The notes: generated from the letters alone by a model not told the origin. Shown: positions 6,299 through 64,000, numbered from the stretch's first letter. The stretch is 64,000 nucleotides of DNA from Flectonema sp. DT1601 (GCA_964019425.1 OZ025781.1:868001-932000), one strand, 5' to 3'. Translations and numbers: made by a program.

Positions 6299-9200
6299 AT
6301 GCATCGATTACGCCCCCTAGCAAGGACTGGAAGGGTCCAGACTAGTGGGCAAAGAAGAGCCTGTCAGGCTATGCGTGTTGTACAACCGAGGAACTCAGAG
6401 ACGGTTCTGAACTCTACGTCACTCGAATATTTAGAAAATGCTTCAAAGTTAGTAGCAGACGGGGGCAGGTTAGATAAAGGAATTGAGAAGGTCATCGAAA
6501 CTGCAGACACCGAGGAAGATCTGAACATCAGTGTAGTTCCTTACTCGGTAGAGAGACCAGTTCGGGAGTCTGACAGAAGCGCAACCTCCGAAGAAATAAA
6601 GGACGCCATTAAAGTTGCTCAAATGGTGAGAGCCTTCTCAGCCAGAGGCCACTTGATGTGCGATTTAGATCCGCTCGGCCTTCTGAAAAATGGTGTCGAT
6701 AGAAGTGGAGATGTCCCTGATGAGTTAGACCCTGAGTACTTCGGGTTTACTGAAGCTGACATGGATCGTCAGTTTAGAGTTCAGATGCATCAGGATATCG
6801 GAGGATTCTTTTCAAAGGGTGGGCGGATGTCACTTCGCGAACTTCTGGAGAAGCTGAAGCAGATATACTGCGGCAGAATTGGATGGGAATTTATGCACAT
6901 CCCAGACAGAGAGACTACCAGATGGTTGAGAGACAGACTTGAGATGCCTGAGAAGGTGGAGATCACTCCATTGCCTGAGAAGAGACGTCGTATTCTCGAA
7001 GATTTGGCAACCGCTGAGCTCTTTGAGGGATTCCTTCACAAGAAATATCCAACAAAAAGATTTGGATTAGACGGAGGTGACTCGTTGATTCCTGGAATGG
7101 TTGCCTTAGTAGACAAGGCAGCTGAAATGGGAGTTGAAGATGTAGTTATTGGAATGCCTCACAGAGGTCGTCTCAACGTGTTGGCAAATGTTTGCGGAAA
7201 GCCACTCGTGCAAATGCTATCCGAGTTCCAAGATGTGTTACCTGAAAATGAATTCGGAAGTGGAGACGTGAAATACCACTTGGGAACAGTTCAGGATAGA
7301 ATTACTAGAAGTGGAAAGTCAATTCGTCTTTCATTAGTCGCCAACCCGAGTCACTTGGAAGCAGTGAATCCTGTTGTCACAGGTAAGACAAGAGCAAAGC
7401 AACGTTACGCAAAAGATCACGACGGCGATAAATCGATACCAATTCTTCTTCACGGAGACGCTGCTTTCTCAGGTCAGGGAATTTGCTACGAAACAATGGG
7501 TCTCGCTAACCTCTACCGTTACACTTGTGGTGGTACCATTCATATTGTTGTTAACAACCAGATTGGATTCACAACTAATCCGCAGGAAAATAGATCATCA
7601 CCATACTGCACTGATATTGGTAAGCAAGGTAACCCTGTATTCCACGTTAACGGAGATGATCCAGAGAGTGTTGTTCGCGTCTGTGAAATGGCTCTCGAGT
7701 TTCGTCAGAAGTGGAAAAAGGATGTCATTATCGATCTCATTTGTTACAGAAGACATGGTCACAATGAGAAAGATGAACCGATGTTCACTCAACCAATGAT
7801 GTACCAGGCGATTAGTAAGCACCCTTCTGTGTTGACAACCTACGAGAAGCAGTTAATGGCAGAAGGTGTCGTCACAGCTTCAGAGGCTAGTGGTGTTCGT
7901 AAAACAGTTGAAAAAAACCTAAGGGATGAGTTCAAGAAAGCACAGAACCACGAACCTCAGCGTGTCGATTGGCTCGAGTCGAGATGGGAGTACTACAGAA
8001 CTAGCAGTCAGCTGGCGTTCTTTAATTCTACAGGTGTACCTGAGGAGAAGTTGAGAGAAATTGGTCTCAAATTGTGTCAGGTACCAGATACCTTCACTCC
8101 TCACCAAAAGCTGAGAGCCATCTTAGCTCGTAATGAGGCAGCCATTAAATCTGGTCAGGGAATCGAATGGGGAACTGCAGAGGCTCTCGCTTTCGCTACT
8201 CTCCTCTTGGAAGGTAACCATGTGAGACTCAGTGGTCAGGATGTTGAGAGAGGAACTTTCAGTCAGAGACACGCAGTCCTTGTTGACTACAACACAGCTG
8301 AGCAGTACTGCGCTCTGGGTAGTCTCCACAGCACTCAAGCGCACTTTGAAGTTTGCAACTCCTCCCTCTCTGAGTACGGAGTTCTTGGATTTGAGGTTGG
8401 CTACAGTATGGAGAATCCAGCTTCTTTAGTATTGTGGGAAGCGCAGTTCGGTGACTTTGCAAACGGAGCTCAAGTAATCTTCGATCAATTCTTATCTTCT
8501 GGTGAAGCCAAGTGGGTGAGACAGTGTGGTTTAACAGTTCTGCTTCCTCACGGATATGACGGACAAGGACCAGAACACTCTTCAGCGAGATTGGAAAGGT
8601 TTTTAATTATGGCTGATGAGGATGAAGAAGGACCACAATTGGGAGGTGAATTTAACCTCAGCATGGACTCTGAAAAGCAAATTATGCTCTGCAACTGGCA
8701 AGTGTGCTACCCAACCACACCAGCTCAATACTTCCATCTTCTTCGTAGGCAACTTCACAGAGAATTCAGAAAGCCTCTAATCGTCTTCGTGTATGTAACC
8801 ATCTCTGCTCTGTTCACTTATTCGGTGTATTTATTTTTGTGATTGGGATTTGAGTAGTGAAAAAACAATAAAAAAACAGCTCGAAATCTGGTCTCAGATC
8901 TCCGAATGTCTCCAGCTTGTCGGAATTCGCTTCCGCATCCTATCAACTTGGTATGTGTTTCAATGCAATGGTGGCATTGCCGTTACTTTATAGCACTGAA
9001 AAGACTCATCGCAAAAATAACAATAAAAAATAAACAGTTATCGATGACGGTGCCAAGGAACTAGTTTCACCAGCAATTCTGGTAAAGAGAGTTGCCCTGG
9101 TGTCGGGACAAATGTACTTCAGGGCTGTCGAGGAGAGAAAGAAGAGAGGAAGGTGGGATGTTGCGTTGGTGAGAGTTGAGCAGTTGGCGCCTTTCCCATT

Positions 9201-9525
9201 CTCTGATCTTTTGGACATCGTTAACAGATACAGTAACGCTGAGTTCTGCTGGCTTCAGGAAGAACCTAGAAACATGGGTGCATGGAATCACGTAAGACCT
9301 CGTTTCAGAACTACTGTTAAACAAGCTGGACTGAGCTGTGGAAAGCTGAGATTCATTGGAAGAACTTCTTCTGCTTCACCAGCAACTGGTCACATGGTTT
9401 GTAGTCTTTTGTTAAATATTCTTCTTGTGAAGCAATACACGTTGTCAATTATTAACATTTAAACTAAACAGGACATCCATACGGCTGAGCACGAGGCCAT
9501 CATGAATGAGCTCTTTGAGGAGTAG
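6299..9525 (+). CDS. OGDH: 2-oxoglutarate dehydrogenase E1 subunit, 4 exons (6299-8790, 8880-8950, 9038-9396, 9472-9525)
   Basis: Motifs GMPHRGRLN, GDVKYHLG, NPSHLE, LHGDAAF, YRRHGHNE, QGPEHSSAR, QEEPRNMG, SPATG. Arg-rich presequence-like N-terminus. Three GT-AG introns restore the frame. Confidence 0.96.
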
Positions 9526-31864: not shown

Positions 31865-32406
31865 AGAGATGAGTTGAAAGGATCTTGCTTGTCTTGGATT
31901 CTCATCCGATCTTGTTATGCAGTCATTCTGTCACACTTCTGCCTACCCAAAGCCAGTTGACTTGGAGACCCAGAAAACTCTTCCTGACTTCATCAAGACC
32001 AGAGGTGGAGTATCCCTCCGTCGTGGAGATGGAATTATTCACTCATGGTTGAACAGAATGCTTACTGTTGGAACTGGTGCTGACTCCCACACTAGATTCC
32101 CAATTGGTATTTCATTCCCAGCTGGATCTGGTTTGGTTTTTGGTTGCCTTCGGTGCGGCAACTGGTGTAATAATCCCGCTCGACATGCCTGAGTCCATCC
32201 TCGTCAGATTCACAGGTGAGATGCAGCCAGGTATTTCTTCGTGATTTGGTTCACTCTATCCCACTGGAAGCTATTAAGTCTGGAGACCTTACACGCAGAC
32301 CTTCGAGCTGTCAGATGCCTCTGCTGAGAGATCTGCTGCAGGATGCACTATTAAGTTAGACCAGGAACCAATCATTGAATACTTGAAGTTAAACATTGTT
32401 ATGCTT
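31865..32406 (+). pseudogene. acnB: Decayed internal fragment of bacterial-type aconitase B
   Basis: [88 protein letters not shown]. Several frameshifts and deletions. Confidence 0.9.
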
Positions 32407-32870
32407 GGCTGGTTTCAGAAGGTTTTTACAGATTCATAGTTGGAGGGCAAATTCCGACTGATGGGTTATGTTGCCATTATCACCCAATCGACTTGGCTCG
32501 CTTCGCTCGCGCAAAGTTATTTTTCTTTTTGTTTTTCTGTATGAAATTTGTAATTCTTGTTGTACTAATGCTAGCACGAAAACGACGGCTAGCTTATGAT
32601 ATAAAAGAGTCCATGGTTTCCCCCAATTCCCTTGTAATAATATAACAAAGCCCGCAAACCCGCACTAGAGATAGTTACTCGGGGAGCTCCCTGCATGCAA
32701 TGTGTGGAGAAAGAGGCCATCCCTCCCCCTACCTCTCTGCTTTACTACGTCTTTTTTTGTGTGTGGCATTTCTTTTCTTATATTCTTTTCTTTTCAATCT
32801 TGTTCCTTCACACACGGTTGTTCGAACGGTTGTGAACCACCTTGGGTCCCTTACGGCCCCCAAGCTATAT

Positions 32871-32895
32871 AACGATTCTAAAGCTACAGTTTCTG
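32871..32895 (+). other. Spliced-leader-like sequence (partial)
   Basis: AACGATTCTAAAGCTACAGTTTCTG matches nt 5-29 of the diplonemid SL as I recall it (AACCAACGATTTAAAAGCTACAGTTTCTGTACTTTATTG) with 2 mismatches, including the ACAGTTTCTG core shared with kinetoplastid SL. Confidence 0.7.
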
Positions 32896-34696
32896 ATCCA
32901 AACAAAACGGTGAAAGAGCAGTAAGGTGCGCCCCCCATCAGTCACAACACCTTTTTGAATAACTATGAAGAAGAAGAAGAGTAGGGTCCAGTTGAAGACC
33001 ACAGCTATATCACCACCCAGGTCACCCCGGCTTGGAAATCCTTAATACAACTGACCTAATCGAGCCATTACCATCTACAACCAGTTTGCAAAGCAAACAG
33101 GCTTATCAGCAATCGACCGCCACCAAGTTTGGGAATCCAAACTACGAACCCCGCAAACCCGCAAACTTGAGGGTTCAGACAATCAACATCCGTGTCTCAT
33201 CCAACTGTATGTCACCAGTAGACACAAGTTACTTCGTCCCTACCCCTCAACGAGTCCAGACTGAACCTCAGTCATCAGACTCAACACCATCGTAAAGAGA
33301 TCGGCCTCCTTGCAATGCCACCCCCGACACCTGGTTCCCGTTTTTATATCACAGGACCGAACCTTCATAGGCCCAGCTCTTCCGACATGTGTAAGATCCT
33401 AGTAGGGCAGTGGAAGAAGCAACACACCTCCGAAAGAAAGGGTCCAGAGGGTATTTTGTATAATAGAATAGCAGAGTACAATGCAACAACAGAACGCCGT
33501 ACTCACAGCTGAGGTCACAGGTCTGACAAATCAGACGACTGATTTACTGAAGAACCTTCAGGCAGCACAGAATACTAATATGTCGCAAAAATGGATCAAC
33601 AAGAAAGGATGCAGCAGCAAGTCTCAGAGTTAATTAAGGACAATCAAAAGGCGCAGCTGAAGGCGACATCTCAGGCAGCGGAAAAGGACGCATATCGAAG
33701 AGCTACTTGAACGTCAGGGACAAATGCAGCAACAAATCTCGGAGCTAATGGCCCGATTAGACTCGAATTATCAAAACTCAACATCTGTTCCAACTGCAAC
33801 ACTGCAACAGAACTCGAATATTCCAAGCGCCGATACATCACAGCAGTTGCCATGTATAGAAATTTCTTCGGTGGAGATGAAAGCCCCTCCTAGGAAATCC
33901 AACAACAACTCGATACTGTCGAGGTCCAGGTCAAAATCGTTGATTGGCCGCGAATCGGACATGGCAGCTCAGTTACGGGGCCCTTCTCCCCATACGGTGA
34001 TAGATCTGGGACCCCAGGCAAATCCAGAGGAAGATCGCCTTGCCGAAACCAAAAATCGAAGTAGCAACTACAAACCCATCAACAACCAAGTAAAGAGTAC
34101 CATCTCTCTACTACTGCCAGACGCCGCTTAATTCTGTCTGGTATTGAATTGCCTGGTCCTTTGAGAGTACTATCATGGAACGTTAGATCATTATCTAACA
34201 CTCGAGCAGCTTTGGAGTCAATAGTATCCGCTACTAACCCTGATATTATACCTTCAAGAAACCTGGCTCAATAAAAACAGCTGTGACCTTCTTCACATGA
34301 ATGGATACTCATCACTAAGAAGGGACAGAGTTGTTGGCTCCAAATGTCGTGGTGGTGGTTTGCTCACCTACTTCAAAGACAGTCTGAAAATATCTCGCTT
34401 GCCGGAAACTGCTCCTGATTCCTCAGATATAGAAATTCTTAGTTATAATTTAGCGTCCGCCATGGGGTCCATTACATTTAATAATGTATACATACCTCCA
34501 GGTGTTACAAGCCTGCCGAACATTCGATTTGGGCGATATGGCCTTCGGAGATTTCAATGCTCACCACGAGTCCTGGACAAATAAGGTAACTGTAAGATAC
34601 GCTGGTAACGTAGTAAATAATTGGATTACTGACAACGGTTTGGAGATAACTCAACTCAGACCCACGATCCCCAGACACGGTACGACTCCAGATCTG
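32871..34696 (+). mobile_element. Decayed, 3'-truncated non-LTR retrotransposon (ORF1 remnant, UAG, 2A-like motif, APE remnant); 5' boundary approximate
   Basis: Translated fragments align with the - strand element: FSPYGDRSGTPGKSRGRSP, LRVLSWNVRSL, QETWLN, RGGGLLTYF, GDFNAHHESW, HGTTPDL. Multiple frameshifts. Confidence 0.92.
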
Positions 34697-35008
34697 CTAG
34701 CCGATCACTGTCGCAAAGGGCATCACCAGCGAACGACAGTTCAACTTCCTCCAGATCGACATCCCACTCGCCAGCCGCTGCCGTCAACACGTCGCTCACA
34801 ACAGAATCAGCACCAACTGTGACTGACACCGCAGGGAATCCTAAATCCGGACACGTCACGAAAACTTGCATTGTTGTTATTTTTGCTTGTTTTTTTTAGT
34901 AATCTACTGAAAGAAAAAAAGATTTATTAATCTTGCTGAAGTGTTCCAAACCGCGGCAACAATCGTAAAGTAATAAGGAAAAACTGAAAAGCAGCTTCCA
35001 TTCCTGAA
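34691..35008 (-). pseudogene. 318-bp duplicate of the 5' end and upstream region of the Ubl-LRR gene
   Basis: Same orientation as 57908-58225 with 2 mismatches by eye. Encodes MQVFVTCPDLGFPAV...DRLAD and then breaks off. Confidence 0.95.
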
Positions 35009-56873: not shown

Positions 56874-58088
56874 TTAAACAGACCGTTCAAAGAGAGCTCT
56901 ATTATTATTTTGAGGCAGCTGAACAGTTTTCAGGGCGCTGCATTTATTGAGGAAGCGTCCACCAATTTTCTTCACATCACTAAGACCGGAAAGGTCTAGA
57001 GAAGTGATTTCTGAACATTCAAACAAAAAACTATTTCCAATACTAGTGACACTACTAAGACCTGAAAGGTCAAGAGAAGTGATTTGTGAACACTCATACA
57101 AGAAATCATTTCCAATACTGGTGACACAACTAAGACCCGAAAGGTCAACAGAAGTGAGTTGTGAACATCTAAACAAAAAACTATTTCCAATACTAGTGAC
57201 ACTACTAAGACCTGAAAGGTCAAGAGAAGTGATTTCTGAACAACAATTCAAGAAATCATCTCCAATACTGGTGACACTACTAAGACTGGAAAGGTCAAGA
57301 GAAGTGATTTCTGAACAATTATACAAGAAATCATTTCCAATACTGGTGACACTACTAAGACCGGAAAGGTCAAGAAAAGTGATTTTTAAAAACTCAGACA
57401 AGAAGTCATCTCCAATACTGGTGACACTACTAAGACCGGAAAGGTCAAGAGAAGTGATTTCTGAACATTCAAACAAAAAACAATCTCCAATACTGGTGAC
57501 ACTACTAAGACCGGAAAGGTCAAGAGAAGTGATTTCTGAACACTTATACAAGAAATAATCTCCAATACTGGTCACACTACTAAGACCGGAAAGGTCAAGA
57601 GAAGTGATTTCTGAACAATTATGCAAGAAGTCATCTCCAATAGCAGTAACTTGTGAGATGACCGTGCTATTGCAATTTGAATGGCGGAAGGAAATCCGTT
57701 TGGCATCTGAAGGAAGCAACCCCTCGTCAACAGTGAGGCAACCATCCACCGAGAATGTGAGAGTGTCCAGACATAAATTCTCCGTAATGTGGTCTCTGAT
57801 CCAAAGAAGCAGCTTCTCCCTTTTTTTATCATCAACAAACCAACATTTACCGAAGATCCGAACCAGCTTCTCCCATATTTCCAACTCGCTGTTTGCACCC
57901 ACTCCATGATCTGCTAGCCGATCACTGTCGCAAAGGGCATCACCAGCGAACGACAGTTCAACTTCCTCCAGATCGACATCCCACTCGCCAGCCGCTGCCG
58001 TCAACACGTCGCTCACAACAGAATCAGCACCAACTGTGACTGACACCGCAGGGAATCCTAAATCCGGACACGTCACGAAAACTTGCAT
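56874..58088 (-). CDS. Ubiquitin-like domain plus 25-aa leucine-rich-repeat protein
   Basis: N-terminal Ubl (MQVFV...VELSFAGDAL...LADHGV...ELEI), then about nine repeats of EITSLDLSGLSSVTSIGxxFLxxCS. Confidence 0.9.
   Translation of the reverse strand: MQVFVTCPDLGFPAVSVTVGADSVVSDVLTAAAGEWDVDLEEVELSFAGDALCDSDRLADHGVGANSELEIWEKLVRIFGKCWFVDDKKREKLLLWIRDHITENLCLDTLTFSVDGCLTVDEGLLPSDAKRISFRHSNCNSTVISQVTAIGDDFLHNCSEITSLDLSGLSSVTSIGDYFLYKCSEITSLDLSGLSSVTSIGDCFLFECSEITSLDLSGLSSVTSIGDDFLSEFLKITFLDLSGLSSVTSIGNDFLYNCSEITSLDLSSLSSVTSIGDDFLNCCSEITSLDLSGLSSVTSIGNSFLFRCSQLTSVDLSGLSCVTSIGNDFLYECSQITSLDLSGLSSVTSIGNSFLFECSEITSLDLSGLSDVKKIGGRFLNKCSALKTVQLPQNNNRALFERSV
56975..57650 (-). repeat. 75-bp coding tandem repeat (LRR units)
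   Basis: GAAGTGATTT recurs at 57001, 57301, 57451 and 57601 (multiples of 75). Confidence 0.95.
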
Positions 58089-58316
58089 TGTTGTTATTTT
58101 TGCTTGTTTTTTTTAGTAATCTACTGAAAGAAAAAAAGATTTATTAATCTTGCTGAAGTGTTCCAAACGGCGGCAACAATCGTAACGTAATAAGGAAAAA
58201 CTGAAAAGCAGCTTCCATTCCTGAACAGTATTTGTGTGTCTGATACTTTGATTTATTAAAAGAAAGCATTTGAAGACAATATGATGGCGATTCGTCCTTG
58301 TAGGTTTAACTACAAG

Positions 58317-58671
58317 TCACTGTAATCGATTGGCGCTATCATTTTGAGGAAGCTCAACAGATTTAATTCCACCGTTGCTGAGGCAAAAGTCTCCAACAGT
58401 AGTAACAATAATAGAGTCATCACTCAGACCTGAAAGATTAATAGAAGTGATTTGTAAACAGGAAGACAAGAACCCCCTTCCAATTTTGGTGACATTTCTA
58501 AATCCCGAAAGATCAAGATCACCTAATTCTGAACAGGAATACAAGAAATAATCACCAATAATGGTAACACTTTTAAGACCTGTAAGGTCAAGAGCAGTGA
58601 TTTGTGAACAGGAAGTCAAGAAATTATTTCCAATAGTAGTAACACTACTAAAACCTGAAAGGTTAAGAGAA
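58317..58671 (-). pseudogene. 3' part of a second LRR gene interrupted by the retrotransposon
   Basis: Reads SLNLSGFSSVTTIGNNFLTSCSQITALDLTGL... with no start codon and abuts the (CTAA)6 tail. Confidence 0.85.
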
Positions 58672-58915
58672 GTTAGTTAGTTAGTTAGTTAGTTAGCAAG
58701 TCCATCAGACCACCGAGTATCGGTTAGGTAGACACTCAAAGAGTACCGGGTGGCTCTTCTGAGGGTCCCCAATACTGCGGCAGTAGGAAGAACCTAATCC
58801 CGGGGGATTATTTTGTTAGTATCAGCACAGGGCATACTAGATCAGGAGACCTAGAAACACTTTGCTTCCACCTTGTCCGGTATACTAGCAGGAAACCACG
58901 CAATTAAGTAAACAA

Positions 58916-58975
<60 letters not shown>

Positions 58976-59101
58976 AGTTCTAATCTGAAACACTAAATAA
59001 ACTTGATATTATGATGAAAAAATAAAACAAAATAAAATAATATAAGATAACATAAAATAAAATAGATGAATTTAATAACTCAGTAAACACAGTTGATGAT
59101 T

Positions 59102-62100
59102 TCAGGGATTAATTTTGAATAGTATATCTATGTAACTCCGAGTCGGAGGACCTCGCACCTTGTAGTCGAACCACTTCCGTTCTATCCGCTCATAGTTGGC
59201 GTAGTGGATCTTATTGAGCAGATCAGTAAATTGAGTCTTTTCTATACCATTATAGCAGAAAAGCTCAACTGTCCACAGAAAATTGTGTATTTCCTCGATC
59301 ACCGTGTGATTGTAGGCATTATCGATGGCTTGTAAGACTTCGAGCTTATCTCGAGAAGTGAGTTTCGGAAGGTTAGAGAATTTAACAAGATGCCTCAATA
59401 ACCACTGTCTCGGCAGGGCCGCACGCAGCGGAAAGCTCTGCAGGTAGCTCTCCAGGTCCTTCAGCATTGCAGCTAGTTTCGGCTGATTCTCTGTGGCAAA
59501 GAACGTATGGTGGTGTTGTCCGTCATTTGTCGGGTCATCGCATTGCGGGATGTCCGGGAAGAATTGCTGCACTATGATCCTCGCGCCATTACATCTCGAG
59601 AGAAGGTGATGTGCGTCTGTGTCGGTGTGATTACAGAATCGACAGTCAGTAAGACCCAAGGCAGGGAGCTTTACCAGTTCGTGATGACCCGTTCTCACTC
59701 GGGCTATAATAATCTCGTCACTTCTTAAAAGGTCCTGATGGAACTTCTGTACCCTACCAGACGATGTTGCCAAGTTGTGGACGTGTCGCGTATCTCGGGA
59801 GCGAAGCCATGCTTTTCTGACTTGGTTCACAATTGAACATTGAGCCATTCGGTAGTCAAAGGGAACCTCCGTGAGCGGTATCTCAGATGACGCAGCTTTG
59901 GAAGCCAGGCTATCAGCTAACTCATTTCCAATAACACCACAATGAGAAGGTACAAACTGCATCGTAAACGGGCGATTCAGGGTGGAAATCTGGCTGAGAA
60001 TCTCGTGGTTGGTGCGCGAATGCTGGCAGAGGTACCCCTTGGCCAAGCTACTCAGCGATGACTGGCTGTCGGATATGATGTGTATCCTGCCGTTCGGTAG
60101 TTGTGGCGAATTATCGCGGACGATATCCAGAGCCGAGATCAAAGCCCTCTGTTCTGCGTTGTAAATCATCAGAGAGGGGTTATAGCGCTGTAGCTTCGTG
60201 TAACATTTATTTCGGAAAACCAAGACCGCAGCATTCCCACAGTGGTAACACCCATCTTTGTCCTCAAAGTAAGAAGCATCTGTATAAACACGTGCAATCG
60301 CAGGTGGCAAGGATTCGATTGATGCAAGGGCATAATTTAGGTTGTGCTCTGTGTCTGGTGACTTACGAAAGTCCCTTGAAGGCAGAACCGTGACGTTTGG
60401 AGGAGGTTCCCAAGGAGCCTGATGGTGAGGCAGGTAGAATCTGGACTTGACACTGGGCGTCGGGAAGCATTTCGAGAAGTGGGTTGCTGAGGATTCCCAA
60501 CGTCCTTCCTCCCCCTCTCCATTGAAAAGACTCCAGGTCGGAGCATTCTCTGCGTATCGTTGGTAACGTTCGTAGATGAGAGCCATGGATTTAGCCAGGT
60601 GTTGTTTGAATGGTAGGATGTCGGATTCTACTGAAACAGCTTGGACCGAAGCTGATGAAGAGCAACCAGTTAGCTTAAGCATGAGCTTCCTGTGTATGGT
60701 TTCTACGCGTTTCCATGAGTCTCGGCGGAGATAGGGTGCATATGCTGCAAGTCCGTGGTAAGCTCTCGCTAGTACAAGGCCGTTAACAAGTTGCCTTAGC
60801 ACTTCAGTTTTAATTTCGAAAGATGAGATCATCTTCAAGAGACCAATTCCCCGTTTCATAGTGCTAGTCACCTTATTCAGCTGGGGTTCGAATGTCAGTC
60901 TATCGTCAATCAGCACACCCAGGTAGCGAGCATGTTCAACACGGCGAATAGGTATTGCTGTAAAAATGTCAAGCTTCTTCTTGCCAACCCTGCTGCGAAA
61001 ATCGGTTCGAGTTGATACGTCTCTCCCATTCACTGTCAAGGGAAAGACGGGACCACTTTCCAAATTTAACTGAGCGCCAGGACCTTCGTCTAATTTGTCC
61101 AACAAGAGCGACGGTTGGGAGAAGGATTCTAGTCTTTTCGTTGATGGTAGGTACAGCCTAGGGAATCTGCAGAGACCCTTGCCGGAGTCAAATCGAGTGC
61201 CGATCGCCAGGAATTCGGTCTTGGCCTGCGACAAACTCATGTTCGAGTCAGAGAGCCAGCTTTCTACCTGTCCAATCGCTTCATTGGCCTTGGTTTCAAG
61301 GTCTCCAATCTTATTGCTGCTCACAAATACTGAGAGGTCATCAGCGTAGAGCAGTTTAATGTCTGCTTTCGTGACAGACCGCGGGAGTGTGTCGACGTAC
61401 AGCCTGAAAAGGAGAGGTCCCAGAATACTACCCTGCGGTACCCCCTTATTACAACCAATATCCTTCGAGTATGTTTTTCCATAAAGAAGCCGCGCTGAAC
61501 GGTTCGAAAGGAAGTCCACTAACCATCGTACATATGGTTTGGGCAACAGCGGGATAAGTCTTTCTACTAATATACGATGGCTTACGTTGTCGAAAGCTCC
61601 GGAGATATCAAAGAAGAGTAATACGCCACATTTTTCGAAGTCTTGTCTGGTTTCCGACGCAGCGTTAGCCAAGATCGCAATATTTTCATCCGTAGTTCTG
61701 CCAGGAACAAAGCCTGACTGATTGGGGTCTAAGCTCCCCTCCAATAGGTGTTCCAATCGGCGAAGGATAAGAGCTTCAATGAATTTTGCAACAATAGAAG
61801 TCATTGAAATAGGGCGGTACGAAGAAGGTTCTGAGGGGTCTTTTCCATTGCCTTTGAGAAAAGGAATGACGTTTGCCTTTTTGAAACACTCGGGGAGGAT
61901 ACCTCGTCTTAGAGACCAGTTGGCTATACGAAGGAGTACCAAAATCATTTGCGGTCCCAGATGTAGAAGCATGTTATTCGAGATGGAGTCCGGTCCTGCA
62001 CTGTTTGTTCTCTTGAGGGAACTGAACACAGCCCGGGCTTCTTCCTGCGAGAAAGGACTACACTCCGGAGTTTCATAGTCACCAGGTTTTACCTTTGGAG

Positions 62101-63256
62101 CTTCTGGCCTAGTACTGTCAGAGCCGCTTGGGAAGAAACGGCTTATAAGCGACGTCATTGGAGCTCGTGGTGTTGGAAGTGCCGTCTTATCACCCCTGAG
62201 TTCCCGTATTTTTCTGTAGGTCCACGAGAAGCCCTTATCACAACCTTGGGAGGCTACTTGGCTGGGGGATAGAGGAGCTAGGATACGTTCCCTTCCCTTG
62301 TGTCGAGGCTTGCACCACTTGTTGGGTAGCTTGGCGATTGCTACTTTTTCTACCGTATGGACAAAGTTGTTTGAGAGTTTCTTCAAGGATTTTATCTTTA
62401 ATAGTCGTGTTGTGTGTGATTCCAATGTATCAGAAAAGGCTGTCCAGTGTGCATCTTGGAACTGATTGAGGAGCCATTTGCGGTGTGGTGGTGAGTTGCT
62501 AAAGTTTGAGAAAGTCGTGATATCGAAGTCCGCTAAGATAGGTGTATGATCCGACATTAGTGCGTCAGGGTCATATTGGCAAACGCTCAGACATTTATGC
62601 TGAGGAGAGTGTAAGACCAGATCGGGGGTTGTACCGTGTTTCGGAATCGTCGGTTTGAGCTGAACTAACTCCAATCCGTTGTCATTTATCCAGTCAAAGA
62701 CCGTTGAGCCTGCTGATTTTGTAGGGACTTTCTGTGACCAGGATTCATGATGGGCGTTAAAGTCACCAAAAGCCATGTCACCTAGATCGTATGATGATGG
62801 AAGGCGTGAAACACCGGGTGGAATATATATATTCTTAAAAGTTATGGAACCTATTGTTGAAGCGAGGCTGAATTCCAGCGCCTCAATGTCGGAGGATCCA
62901 GATGATACGTCGTTGTTGTGAGAGATCTTTAAACCATTTCTGAAATACGTCAGTAGGCCACCACCCCGGCTCTTGGAGACTGTCTTCCTGTCTCTCCTAA
63001 TGTACGAGTACCCATCCATATGTAAAAGATCACTGTTGTTCTCATTCAGCCAGGTCTCCTGCAGGTTTATTATATCAGGGTTTGTTGCGTTAACGATGGA
63101 CTCTAAGGCTGCTCTAGTGTTAGTAAGCGACCTTAGATTCCAGGATAAAATTCTCAGAGGACCCGGGTTTTGTTCTATCCCCGATCGGATTAAGAGCTGC
63201 CTCGCGGTGACCGTCAGATGGAAATCCCTGCTGGGATGTGGTTGGGGATGTCGTTG
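59102..63256 (-). CDS. Retrotransposon ORF2 (linker, 2A-like motif, APE, RT, RNase H, zinc knuckle); frame open 79 codons upstream of the first ATG at 63019
   Basis: APE ILSWN, LQETW, GDFNAH, SDH. RT GVPQGSILGP, YADD, YLGV. RNase H VYTDAS, NAEQ, ISDSQS, VPSHCGVIGNELAD. CRFC...HHLLSRC. Confidence 0.95.
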   Translation of the reverse strand, partial: QRHPQPHPSRDFHLTVTARQLLIRSGIEQNPGPLRILSWNLRSLTNTRAALESIVNATNPDIINLQETWLNENNSDLLHMDGYSYIRRDRKTVSKSRGGGLLTYFRNGLKISHNNDVSSGSSDIEALEFSLASTIGSITFKNIYIPPGVSRLPSSYDLGDMAFGDFNAHHESWSQKVPTKSAGSTVFDWINDNGLELVQLKPTIPKHGTTPDLVLHSPQHKCLSVCQYDPDALMSDHTPILADFDITTFSNFSNSPPHRKWLLNQFQDAHWTAFSDTLESHTTRLLKIKSLKKLSNNFVHTVEKVAIAKLPNKWCKPRHKGRERILAPLSPSQVASQGCDKGFSWTYRKIRELRGDKTALPTPRAPMTSLISRFFPSGSDSTRPEAPKVKPGDYETPECSPFSQEEARAVFSSLKRTNSAGPDSISNNMLLHLGPQMILVLLRIANWSLRRGILPECFKKANVIPFLKGNGKDPSEPSSYRPISMTSIVAKFIEALILRRLEHLLEGSLDPNQSGFVPGRTTDENIAILANAASETRQDFEKCGVLLFFDISGAFDNVSHRILVERLIPLLPKPYVRWLVDFLSNRSARLLYGKTYSKDIGCNKGVPQGSILGPLLFRLYVDTLPRSVTKADIKLLYADDLSVFVSSNKIGDLETKANEAIGQVESWLSDSNMSLSQAKTEFLAIGTRFDSGKGLCRFPRLYLPSTKRLESFSQPSLLLDKLDEGPGAQLNLESGPVFPLTVNGRDVSTRTDFRSRVGKKKLDIFTAIPIRRVEHARYLGVLIDDRLTFEPQLNKVTSTMKRGIGLLKMISSFEIKTEVLRQLVNGLVLARAYHGLAAYAPYLRRDSWKRVETIHRKLMLKLTGCSSSASVQAVSVESDILPFKQHLAKSMALIYERYQRYAENAPTWSLFNGEGEEGRWESSATHFSKCFPTPSVKSRFYLPHHQAPWEPPPNVTVLPSRDFRKSPDTEHNLNYALASIESLPPAIARVYTDASYFEDKDGCYHCGNAAVLVFRNKCYTKLQRYNPSLMIYNAEQRALISALDIVRDNSPQLPNGRIHIISDSQSSLSSLAKGYLCQHSRTNHEILSQISTLNRPFTMQFVPSHCGVIGNELADSLASKAASSEIPLTEVPFDYRMAQCSIVNQVRKAWLRSRDTRHVHNLATSSGRVQKFHQDLLRSDEIIIARVRTGHHELVKLPALGLTDCRFCNHTDTDAHHLLSRCNGARIIVQQFFPDIPQCDDPTNDGQHHHTFFATENQPKLAAMLKDLESYLQSFPLRAALPRQWLLRHLVKFSNLPKLTSRDKLEVLQAIDNAYNHTVIEEIHNFLWTVELFCYNGIEKTQFTDLLNKIHYANYERIERKWFDYKVRGPPTRSYIDILFKINP
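63158..63181 (-). other. 2A/StopGo-like motif (LLIRS)GIEQNPG|P
   Basis: Matches (D)[V/I]ExNPGP except for the Asp and sits immediately before APE strand LRILSWN. Confidence 0.75.
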
Positions 63257-63262
63257 CTATTG
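63251..63262 (-). promoter_or_regulatory. Candidate stop-codon readthrough signal CAA UAG CAA CGA
   Basis: One base from the TMV-type UAG-CARYYA context. The paralogous copy has UAG CAA CUA at 34062-34070. Confidence 0.7.
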
Positions 63263-64000
63263 CTTTGACATAGAACTCCGGTGAGGCGTCCTACCCCGTG
63301 ATCTGCTGGGGGTATTCGTTCTGTCCCCGTAGGGAGAGAAGGAGTCTTGTAGCTGCTTTGCCACCTCTGATTCCTGTCCCAGGACTGATTTAGACCTGAT
63401 TCTGTTCAGCATCGTCTTGTTGGATGCTTTCTTCGGAGGTGCCTTCGTGACTGGTGCTGTTGTGACTTCAGCAGTTGGAGGCTGTGCCGGCTTACCGTGC
63501 ACCGGAGGTTTCATGTTCTGAGGTGGCACTTCAGTTGTTTCCGCAAGAGGAGACCCTTCCGGCGATGAGGACTGTTGAAGAACAGTGTGTTCGATCGAGA
63601 GTTTCTGCTCGTGCATTTGGTTAAGCCGAGCTAACAACTCCGATATTCTTCGTGACAGGTTAGCCACTTCGTCGGTGAGTCGGGAGTTCTGTTCCTGCAT
63701 TTTAACTTGCTGTTTCAGAAGATCTTGGATGCGAGCGTCTCTGTCTTCTAATGACGCCTGTGTCCGTGCTGACTGGTCCTTCTGTTGTTGATCTTGACGA
63801 GCCATGAGATCCGAGGCCTGTTCTGTTAAGCCCGTCACTTTGTCGGTTAGGTGGCCGTTCTGGACCTGCATCTGTCGCTGTTGTTTGAGAAGTTCTCCGA
63901 TTCGAGTGTCCTTAGCGGAGTCGGATGGGGACGTAGTGTCAGTTGGGGTGCTGTTGTCCGGTGAAGGAGCAGAGTCATCTGGTGAGCTATCATCTATTGT
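63257..64000 (-). CDS. Retrotransposon ORF1, 5'-partial coiled-coil protein
   Basis: Frame is open from the window edge to TAG at 63259-63257. Duplicated heptad block KDTRIGELLKQQRQMQVQNGHLTDKV / RDARIQDLLKQQVKMQEQNSRLTDEV. Confidence 0.85.
   Translation of the reverse strand, partial: TIDDSSPDDSAPSPDNSTPTDTTSPSDSAKDTRIGELLKQQRQMQVQNGHLTDKVTGLTEQASDLMARQDQQQKDQSARTQASLEDRDARIQDLLKQQVKMQEQNSRLTDEVANLSRRISELLARLNQMHEQKLSIEHTVLQQSSSPEGSPLAETTEVPPQNMKPPVHGKPAQPPTAEVTTAPVTKAPPKKASNKTMLNRIRSKSVLGQESEVAKQLQDSFSPYGDRTNTPSRSRGRTPHRSSMSKQ

Follow-up and report, generated by a model that had tools for sequence, protein, structure and literature searches.

The window analysed here, a stretch of 64,000 nucleotides from Flectonema sp. 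DT1601 (GCA_964019425.1, OZ025781.1:868001-932000), contains on its minus strand a retrotransposon whose two ORFs lie in one reading frame. For ORF1, the 3' 247 codons (63260..64000) are present and the 5' end lies past the window edge; the encoded protein is rich in Gln, Ser, Pro and Thr, has a basic C-terminus and gave weak, coiled-coil-type matches only in a Pfam search. Its last codons, ATG TCA AAG CAA, are followed by TAG (63259-63257), past which the frame stays open for 1384 codons, to a TGA at 59104-59102. On the same strand, ORF2 encodes an APE endonuclease (62546..63148; Pfam Exo_endo_phos, ORF2 residues 37-237, matched from profile position 1), a reverse transcriptase (RT; 61205..61834; Pfam RVT_1, E 9e-34, residues 475-684; best PDB matches R2 and LINE-1 ORF2p), an RNase H (59891..60289; Pfam RNase_H, E 5.3e-09, residues 990-1122) and a C-terminal Cys/His motif read from the translation, CRFC...HHLLSRC (59591..59644), which is likely to bind zinc. 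The likely 3' UTR (58671..59101, boundary presumed) is T-rich and includes a poly(T) run of 57 nt (58917-58973) and (TAAC)6.5 (58671-58696), the latter probably the 3' tail. An N-terminal APE with a non-LTR-type RT downstream of it, dispersed copies that are mostly 3' fragments, and the (TAAC)n run past the tentatively bounded 3' UTR identify the element as a LINE.

The ORF1 stop is embedded in CAA-UAG-CAA-CGA (63251..63262), a predicted leaky context, and is followed by a 33-codon in-frame linker (63158..63256) that lacks AUG and ends in a 2A-like peptide. The linker translation reads QRHPQPHPSRDFHLTVTARQLLIRSGIEQNPG and then P, this Pro being codon 33 (63160-63158). The 2A/StopGo core, GIEQNPG followed by P (63158..63181), fits the pattern (D/G/C/N)(V/I)ExNPGP described in PMC12846837, with the skip predicted between Gly (63163-63161) and Pro. 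The first in-frame AUG is codon 80 (63017..63019), corresponding to Met48 counted from the 2A Pro, and the earliest ATG past the UAG in any frame (+214 nt) is out of frame. The reading frames thus confirmed the proposal of the initial annotation that ORF1 ends at a UAG after which the same frame continues open and without AUG up to the endonuclease motif SWN, and also that the AUG at 63019 lies downstream of the APE motifs, as both conserved residues of the domain, Asn and Glu, precede this Met. In an alignment-based model of the APE started at the 2A Pro (pLDDT 89.7), whose best fold matches were the TRAS1 endonuclease (E 1.2e-11) and the LINE-1 endonuclease, strand 1 is predicted to span residues 2-8 and to begin one residue past the Pro. 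Asn8 is nearly invariant and Glu35 invariant in an alignment of 46 sequences; positions of this type are active-site residues in APE chemistry. According to the model, a start at Met48 would remove strand 1, helix 1 and strand 2 along with Asn8 and Glu35.

A degenerate, 3'-truncated paralog lies on the plus strand (33448..34696, truncation near 34696) and consists of an ORF1 remnant, UAG-CAA-CUA (34062-34070), a 32-codon linker and a frameshifted APE remnant. It is 66% identical to the intact copy over 831 nt of DNA and, broken by several frameshifts, is dead. Its junction reads AAG TAG CAA CTA (34059-34070), and its linker is collinear with that of the intact copy except that the Asn codon of NPGP has been deleted in frame. 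The homology between the two ORF1 sequences extends to the stop, with 17 identical residues over the last 26 codons; the end of ORF1 is conserved like the linker, indicating that both flanks are coding up to the stop. Linker mismatches fell on codon positions 1, 2 and 3 in the ratio 4/9/21 over 32 codons (P=0.0006) and 1/3/8 over codons 3-14, ahead of the 2A core (P=0.019). When substitutions were placed at random with equal load (20,000 trials), at least 17 identical residues were obtained in 3.3% and a stop-free linker in 38%, so that an open frame by itself says little and the argument rests on the codon-position bias. The linker is accordingly read as having evolved as in-frame coding sequence. 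The paralog retains the UAG, CAAC at +1 to +4 and A at +6, while linker residues 2-7 differ throughout; for five common context bases at a local identity near 0.67, persistence by chance is estimated at about 13%. The two copies, read as DNA, share ancestry and represent one origin kept across 34% divergence, not independent draws. Neither copy has an AUG, whatever the frame, from the stop as far as SWN. Since the paralog keeps the UAG and the spacing, the linker evolves as coding sequence and AUG is missing from both, we judge the UAG to be inherited and not a fresh nonsense mutation. The conservation of stop, context and spacing, proposed earlier as a check, was found in a 66%-identical paralog, minus one codon within NPGP. 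We conclude that the junction is a real, inherited feature under selection, for which we infer a mechanism below. As a side observation, the ORF1 of the paralog may begin within 32965-33050 (MKKKKSRVQLK...), in which case ORF1 would have near 370 codons and would start in the intact copy about 120 codons past the window edge.

The same comparison bears on two simpler accounts. The start chosen by gene callers is the internal AUG (63019), from which an endonuclease-dead RT would be made, with the 79 upstream codons vestigial; this is extremely unlikely, as over the first 28 APE codons 24 residues are identical to the paralog and mismatches are distributed 8/1/14 by codon position, pointing to selection upstream of that Met. 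Alternatively, ORF1, 2A and ORF2 could form a single frame into which the UAG came by ordinary nonsense mutation, the copies being dead or trans-mobilised. CAG to TAG is one transition, and 2A-linked single-ORF LINEs are the norm among the elements described in PMC3708506, but a paralog diverged by 34% has its stop at the identical position, ORF2 is intact over 1384 codons with copies of 99%+ identity present, and no fused protein was found among candidates of 761-2422 aa or among the family members listed, which makes this account very unlikely.

The initial annotation had described the stop context as the tobamovirus type, UAG-CARYYA. This holds strictly for the paralog (UAG-CAA-CUA); the intact copy (UAG-CAA-CGA) has G at +5 and fits only the wider yeast readthrough motif UAG-CAR-NBA, which in yeast is accompanied by 5' adenines (PMC3159437). 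The CAA preceding the UAG of the intact copy is the same as in TMV, whose sequence is CAA UAG CAA UUA, and contexts of this type I are described as active in plants, mammals and yeast without downstream structure (PMC13517186). At the UAG of MuLV, Gln is inserted, according to PMC8310308. The context exceeds what chance would give: in the window, CARNBA follows 13 of 1245 TAG triplets (1.0%) and CARYYA four (0.3%), and CARNBA was found after none of 19 host ORF stops. The 9-mer stop context showed no window-wide enrichment (10 found, 7.1 expected), so that the weight lies on its position, at the boundary of ORF1 and ORF2 in two copies. No RNA structure common to both copies was found 3' of the stop (z +1.17 and -1.55 over about 110 nt, with the windows for the paralog starting 2 nt inside the stop). 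In both copies the 24 nt past the stop (63233-63256; paralog 34065-34090) lack structure and are rich in C and A, most codons beginning with C, and a related family (family 2, below) has a PPPP run at the matching position. This stretch is reminiscent of the C-rich repeat that follows luteovirus readthrough stops.

Judging from its genes, the host is a diplonemid, because the 2-oxoglutarate dehydrogenase of the window shares 76% identity with its Diplonema papillatum counterpart, against at most 57% for matches ranking after the first eight, and the window genes are arranged in two unidirectional blocks. This agrees with the trans-splicing host assumed at the outset, as D. papillatum carries a spliced leader on essentially all mRNAs (PMC10161547). 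The 2-oxoglutarate dehydrogenase E1 gene (6308-9524) has a single long exon and, towards the 3' end, three short GT-AG introns that are AT-rich and have A-rich acceptors ending in ACAG; its stop is TAG. As this TAG coincides with the C-terminus of the homologue and no TAG occurs over 826 aligned residues of exon 1, reassignment of UAG in the host was ruled out.

In such a host, RNA processing could in principle bypass the stop, through a cis-intron or through addition of a spliced leader at the AG of the UAG or within the linker. The GT-AG introns of the host and the trans-splicing of essentially all diplonemid mRNAs speak for this, as do the AG dinucleotides that both copies have within the stop (+3) and at +29 and +59. 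Against it, no GT splice donor is common to both copies, contrary to what an intron bypassing the UAG, named earlier as a potential refutation, would lead one to expect; the junction has 57% GC compared with 26-32% in three host introns; the best 20-nt window 5' of the stop contains 4-6 T compared with 10-17 upstream of 19 host genes; and a transcript trans-spliced there would still be without AUG before SWN. Constitutive introns are lost on retrotransposition, and one at the junction would not have survived it. Taken together, we regard such a bypass as highly improbable.

Comparison of junction DNA covers the two copies in the window; the other family copies and the sister families were compared as proteins. 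Eighteen members spread over many contigs make up the family cluster, most of them 3' fragments; of the 15 that were listed, one is the window's own gene and none exceeds 1305 aa. Neither these 15 nor the candidates of 761-2422 aa include an ORF1-ORF2 fusion, so that the listed members give no sign of a sense codon replacing the UAG in most copies, the other potential refutation raised by the initial annotation. Four others of the 15 that have an APE start (P0001, P0015, P0021 and P0024) were called from the same internal Met, which fits a common stop, although 5' truncation could give the same calls. The copies of 99%+ identity and the intact 1384-codon ORF2 point to recent activity, as far as sequences can tell. 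In three 5'-truncated copies (P0018, P0019 and P0022) the called proteins open with a meaningless Phe-rich stretch, which implies that the DNA 5' of the insertion points is T-rich.

In a tree of 44 rows (7 of 49 candidate proteins with short RT matches left out; no named Ingi reference), two families of about 52-54% identity, families 2 and 3, formed a clade with this element (support 100/100), family 2 nesting with family 3 and this element lying outside both. All four full-length calls of family 3 start after SWN, and all four of family 2 start at a Met at linker position 3-4, ahead of GVHPNPGP (H for E). The next branch (98/98) comprised the P0088 cluster (101 members) and a Flectonema neradi transcript protein. 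Among the 15 P0088 members listed, six of nine N-terminally complete calls start after SWN and three start before GDVERNPGP, possibly at GTG or TTG; the F. neradi relative has a Met 32-34 codons upstream of the 2A Pro. The NPGP motif persists in family 2, in the P0088 cluster and in the F. neradi protein. To judge from these calls, a missing start appears to be common in the lineage, not universal.

These starts are pertinent to another route, in which translation ends at the UAG and begins anew at a linker codon other than AUG; unconventional initiation has been proposed for LINE-1 ORF2, and the 2A would here trim the short leader as in L1Tc/ingi. LINE-1 ORF2 is not known to need its AUG, Met occurs in the linker of some relatives, and a distant LINE has a TGAATG stop-start. 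Reinitiation is the described route for LINE ORF2 (PMC5972666, PMC5009743), as in SART1 and LINE-1; in these two the ORF2 AUG is reported at or near the ORF1 stop (PMC5972666), in contrast to the present element, which has no AUG before the endonuclease. The two copies have a common frame and a readthrough-type hexamer, neither of which reinitiation would require. The in-frame CUG and ACG of the intact copy are not retained in the paralog; no CUG, GUG, UUG or ACG occupies one position in both, with only Ile codons within the 2A core so placed. The nesting of family 2 with the Met-less family 3 suggests that its Met may be derived or incidental. We consider reinitiation improbable.

Readthrough of the UAG in a type-I-like manner, followed by StopGo at the 2A-like peptide, is the best reading of the junction, and we hold it with fair confidence. 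It had been advanced in the initial annotation, and is supported by the UAG and spacing of the paralog, by the listed proteins, which include no fusion, and by the lack of a common splice donor. Most ribosomes would terminate at the UAG and release ORF1p, and a minority would read through it, adding to ORF1p a 33-residue tail (the readthrough residue and 32 linker residues); a skip at NPG/P would then yield free ORF2p with an N-terminal Pro and its first beta-strand directly after. On this reading the ratio of ORF1p to ORF2p would be fixed by the leakiness of the stop, and the 2A would undo the fusion created by readthrough. We infer readthrough, its rate, the 2A activity and the ratio-setting role from sequence. 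The broader proposition, that a diplonemid LINE lineage expresses ORF2 without an initiation event by means of a tobamovirus-type leaky UAG and StopGo about one exit-tunnel length further on, seems to us moderately probable. A single ribosome would then yield ORF1p or, occasionally, tailed ORF1p and afterwards free Pro-ORF2p from one RNA.

The 2A is the part of this scheme for which a variant has to be weighed, namely that readthrough is real and the 2A weak or inactive, the enzyme being made mainly as an ORF1p-ORF2p fusion in the manner of retroviral Gag-Pol. Of the LINE 2A-like peptides tested in vitro, several showed very weak activity or none, among them one with an E-to-H change as in family 2, and low or no activity is reported for many LINE 2A-like sequences (PMC3708506), so that the motif by itself does not suffice for skipping; in addition, the paralog has lost its Asn codon in frame and family 2 has H for E. 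However, the intact copy has the full core octamer with Leu-rich residues upstream, NPGP is kept in the three groups of relatives named above, the paralog, with its several frameshifts, is no longer a live copy, and a p14=H variant is described as more than 95% active in its natural viral context (PMC12846837). According to the same source, full 2A activity can take more than 30 residues, approximately the linker length. A predominantly fused enzyme is, in our estimate, unlikely.

Each component of the favoured reading, readthrough followed by StopGo, is known singly. In the Ingi clade RNase H follows the RT, as seen here by Pfam. Ingi elements also carry a conserved 5' signature with an HDV-like ribozyme; the 5' end of the intact copy lies past the window edge, and a search of 32000-33500, 5' of the decayed paralog, against Rfam gave two sub-threshold compositional matches only. 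The element is not filed as Ingi, because ORF1 is present and the tree is without named Ingi or L1Tc references. As here, L1Tc/ingi elements have a 2A-like peptide directly upstream of the APE in the APE-RT ORF, and their hosts are also euglenozoan (PMC3708506), which agrees with the earlier statement that a 2A precedes the APE in L1Tc/ingi and other LINEs. In that account the Ingi clade is reported without ORF1 and with the 2A in an initiated ORF, in contrast to the ORF1 of at least 247 codons, in-frame UAG and missing AUG found here, and most 2A-before-APE elements lack ORF1 as far as they are described in PMC3708506, PMC13405545 and bioRxiv 10.64898/2026.09.24.754024. The terms 'readthrough' and 'read-through' have no occurrence in PMC3708506 (Odon et al. 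2013), where ORF2 translation from bicistronic LINE RNA is described as unclear.

As to readthrough, the CAA-UAG-CAA of the intact copy resembles that of the TMV type I signal, and neither system has a conserved 3' structure; differences from type I signals are the protist LINE setting, the G at +5 in the intact copy and the 2A afterwards. In LTR elements and retroviruses the polyprotein is cut by a protease, in place of which StopGo is predicted here. MuLV, VdLTRE5 and Tca2, which are LTR or retroviral, are described as using an in-frame leaky stop to set the ratio of structural protein to RT (PMC8310308, PMC3441728), as proposed here. Cardioviruses also place two recoding events close together in one ORF, but in the opposite order and of another kind, StopGo and then -1 frameshifting (PMC5009743). 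Providence virus has readthrough and 2A-like sites in one genome (PMC6548363, PMC3542737), but in separate ORFs, as described in PMC6548363 (readthrough in REP, 2A in p130 and CP), and not in one cassette as here. In the searched literature neither a LINE that uses readthrough nor a 2A placed after a readthrough stop was found, in line with the initial annotation, which knew of no such cassette in a LINE; the element tables of PMC3708506 or 2A catalogues could hold an example.

If true, the element would provide the first example of a LINE stop codon being read through, a natural readthrough-then-StopGo cassette, programmed type-I readthrough on euglenozoan ribosomes, and a third solution for ORF2 beside reinitiation and single-ORF 2A elements, compact at 105 nt as an alternative to reinitiation. 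It also suggests an intermediate on the way from two-ORF to single-ORF 2A LINEs, with ORF1 in frame, a stop for the ratio and a 2A for free ORF2p. A 'leaky stop plus 2A' module would be a ready design for tunable expression of two proteins. The missing AUG accounts for the truncation of these ORF2 proteins by gene callers, so that further such cassettes may hide in other annotated genomes.

Beyond this genome, the cassette pattern gave 21 matches in JGI metagenomes, four of them in frame and none leading through an open linker into APE; in viral contigs one scan gave none and another four, all out of frame by length, and a protein-based locus scan of viral contigs gave none. The protein-based scan of prokaryote genomes returned one distant LINE (27%, L022 1-4718), in which no 2A was seen. 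This eukaryote-type element lies in a bacterial MAG contig, encodes a zinc-knuckle ORF1 and APE-RT-RNase H with a TGAATG stop-start, and is probably contamination. Among 1.84 billion representatives, the family 2 protein was the sole match below 1e-30. No ORF1 homologue was found among proteins of 135-433 aa; ORF1 suffixes matched in 0 of 6 cases in the collection searched, with atlas matches of at most 0.82 and no family. So far, the feature looks confined to diplonemid elements. In three metagenome elements (L005, L011 and L012) a coiled-coil-like ORF comes after a 2A-like ADVELNPGP, with RT similarity in L005 as well; they resemble the ORF1p-type 2A elements described in PMC13405545.

At the 3' end of the element, ORF2 is followed on the sense strand by poly(T), not poly(A), then by about 220 nt and (TAAC)6.5. 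The poly(T) run may be a trans-splicing/polyadenylation signal or part of a separate short element. The (TAAC)6.5 merges into the TAACT of an LRR gene fragment (58317-58676), which suggests a (TAAC)n tail with target microhomology. Both LINE copies adjoin pieces of a ubiquitin-like plus LRR gene family (34699-34870; 56874-58676), the end of the paralog abutting an inverted 5' fragment of a ubiquitin-like plus LRR gene, and these neighbours hint at a target preference or a common rearrangement.
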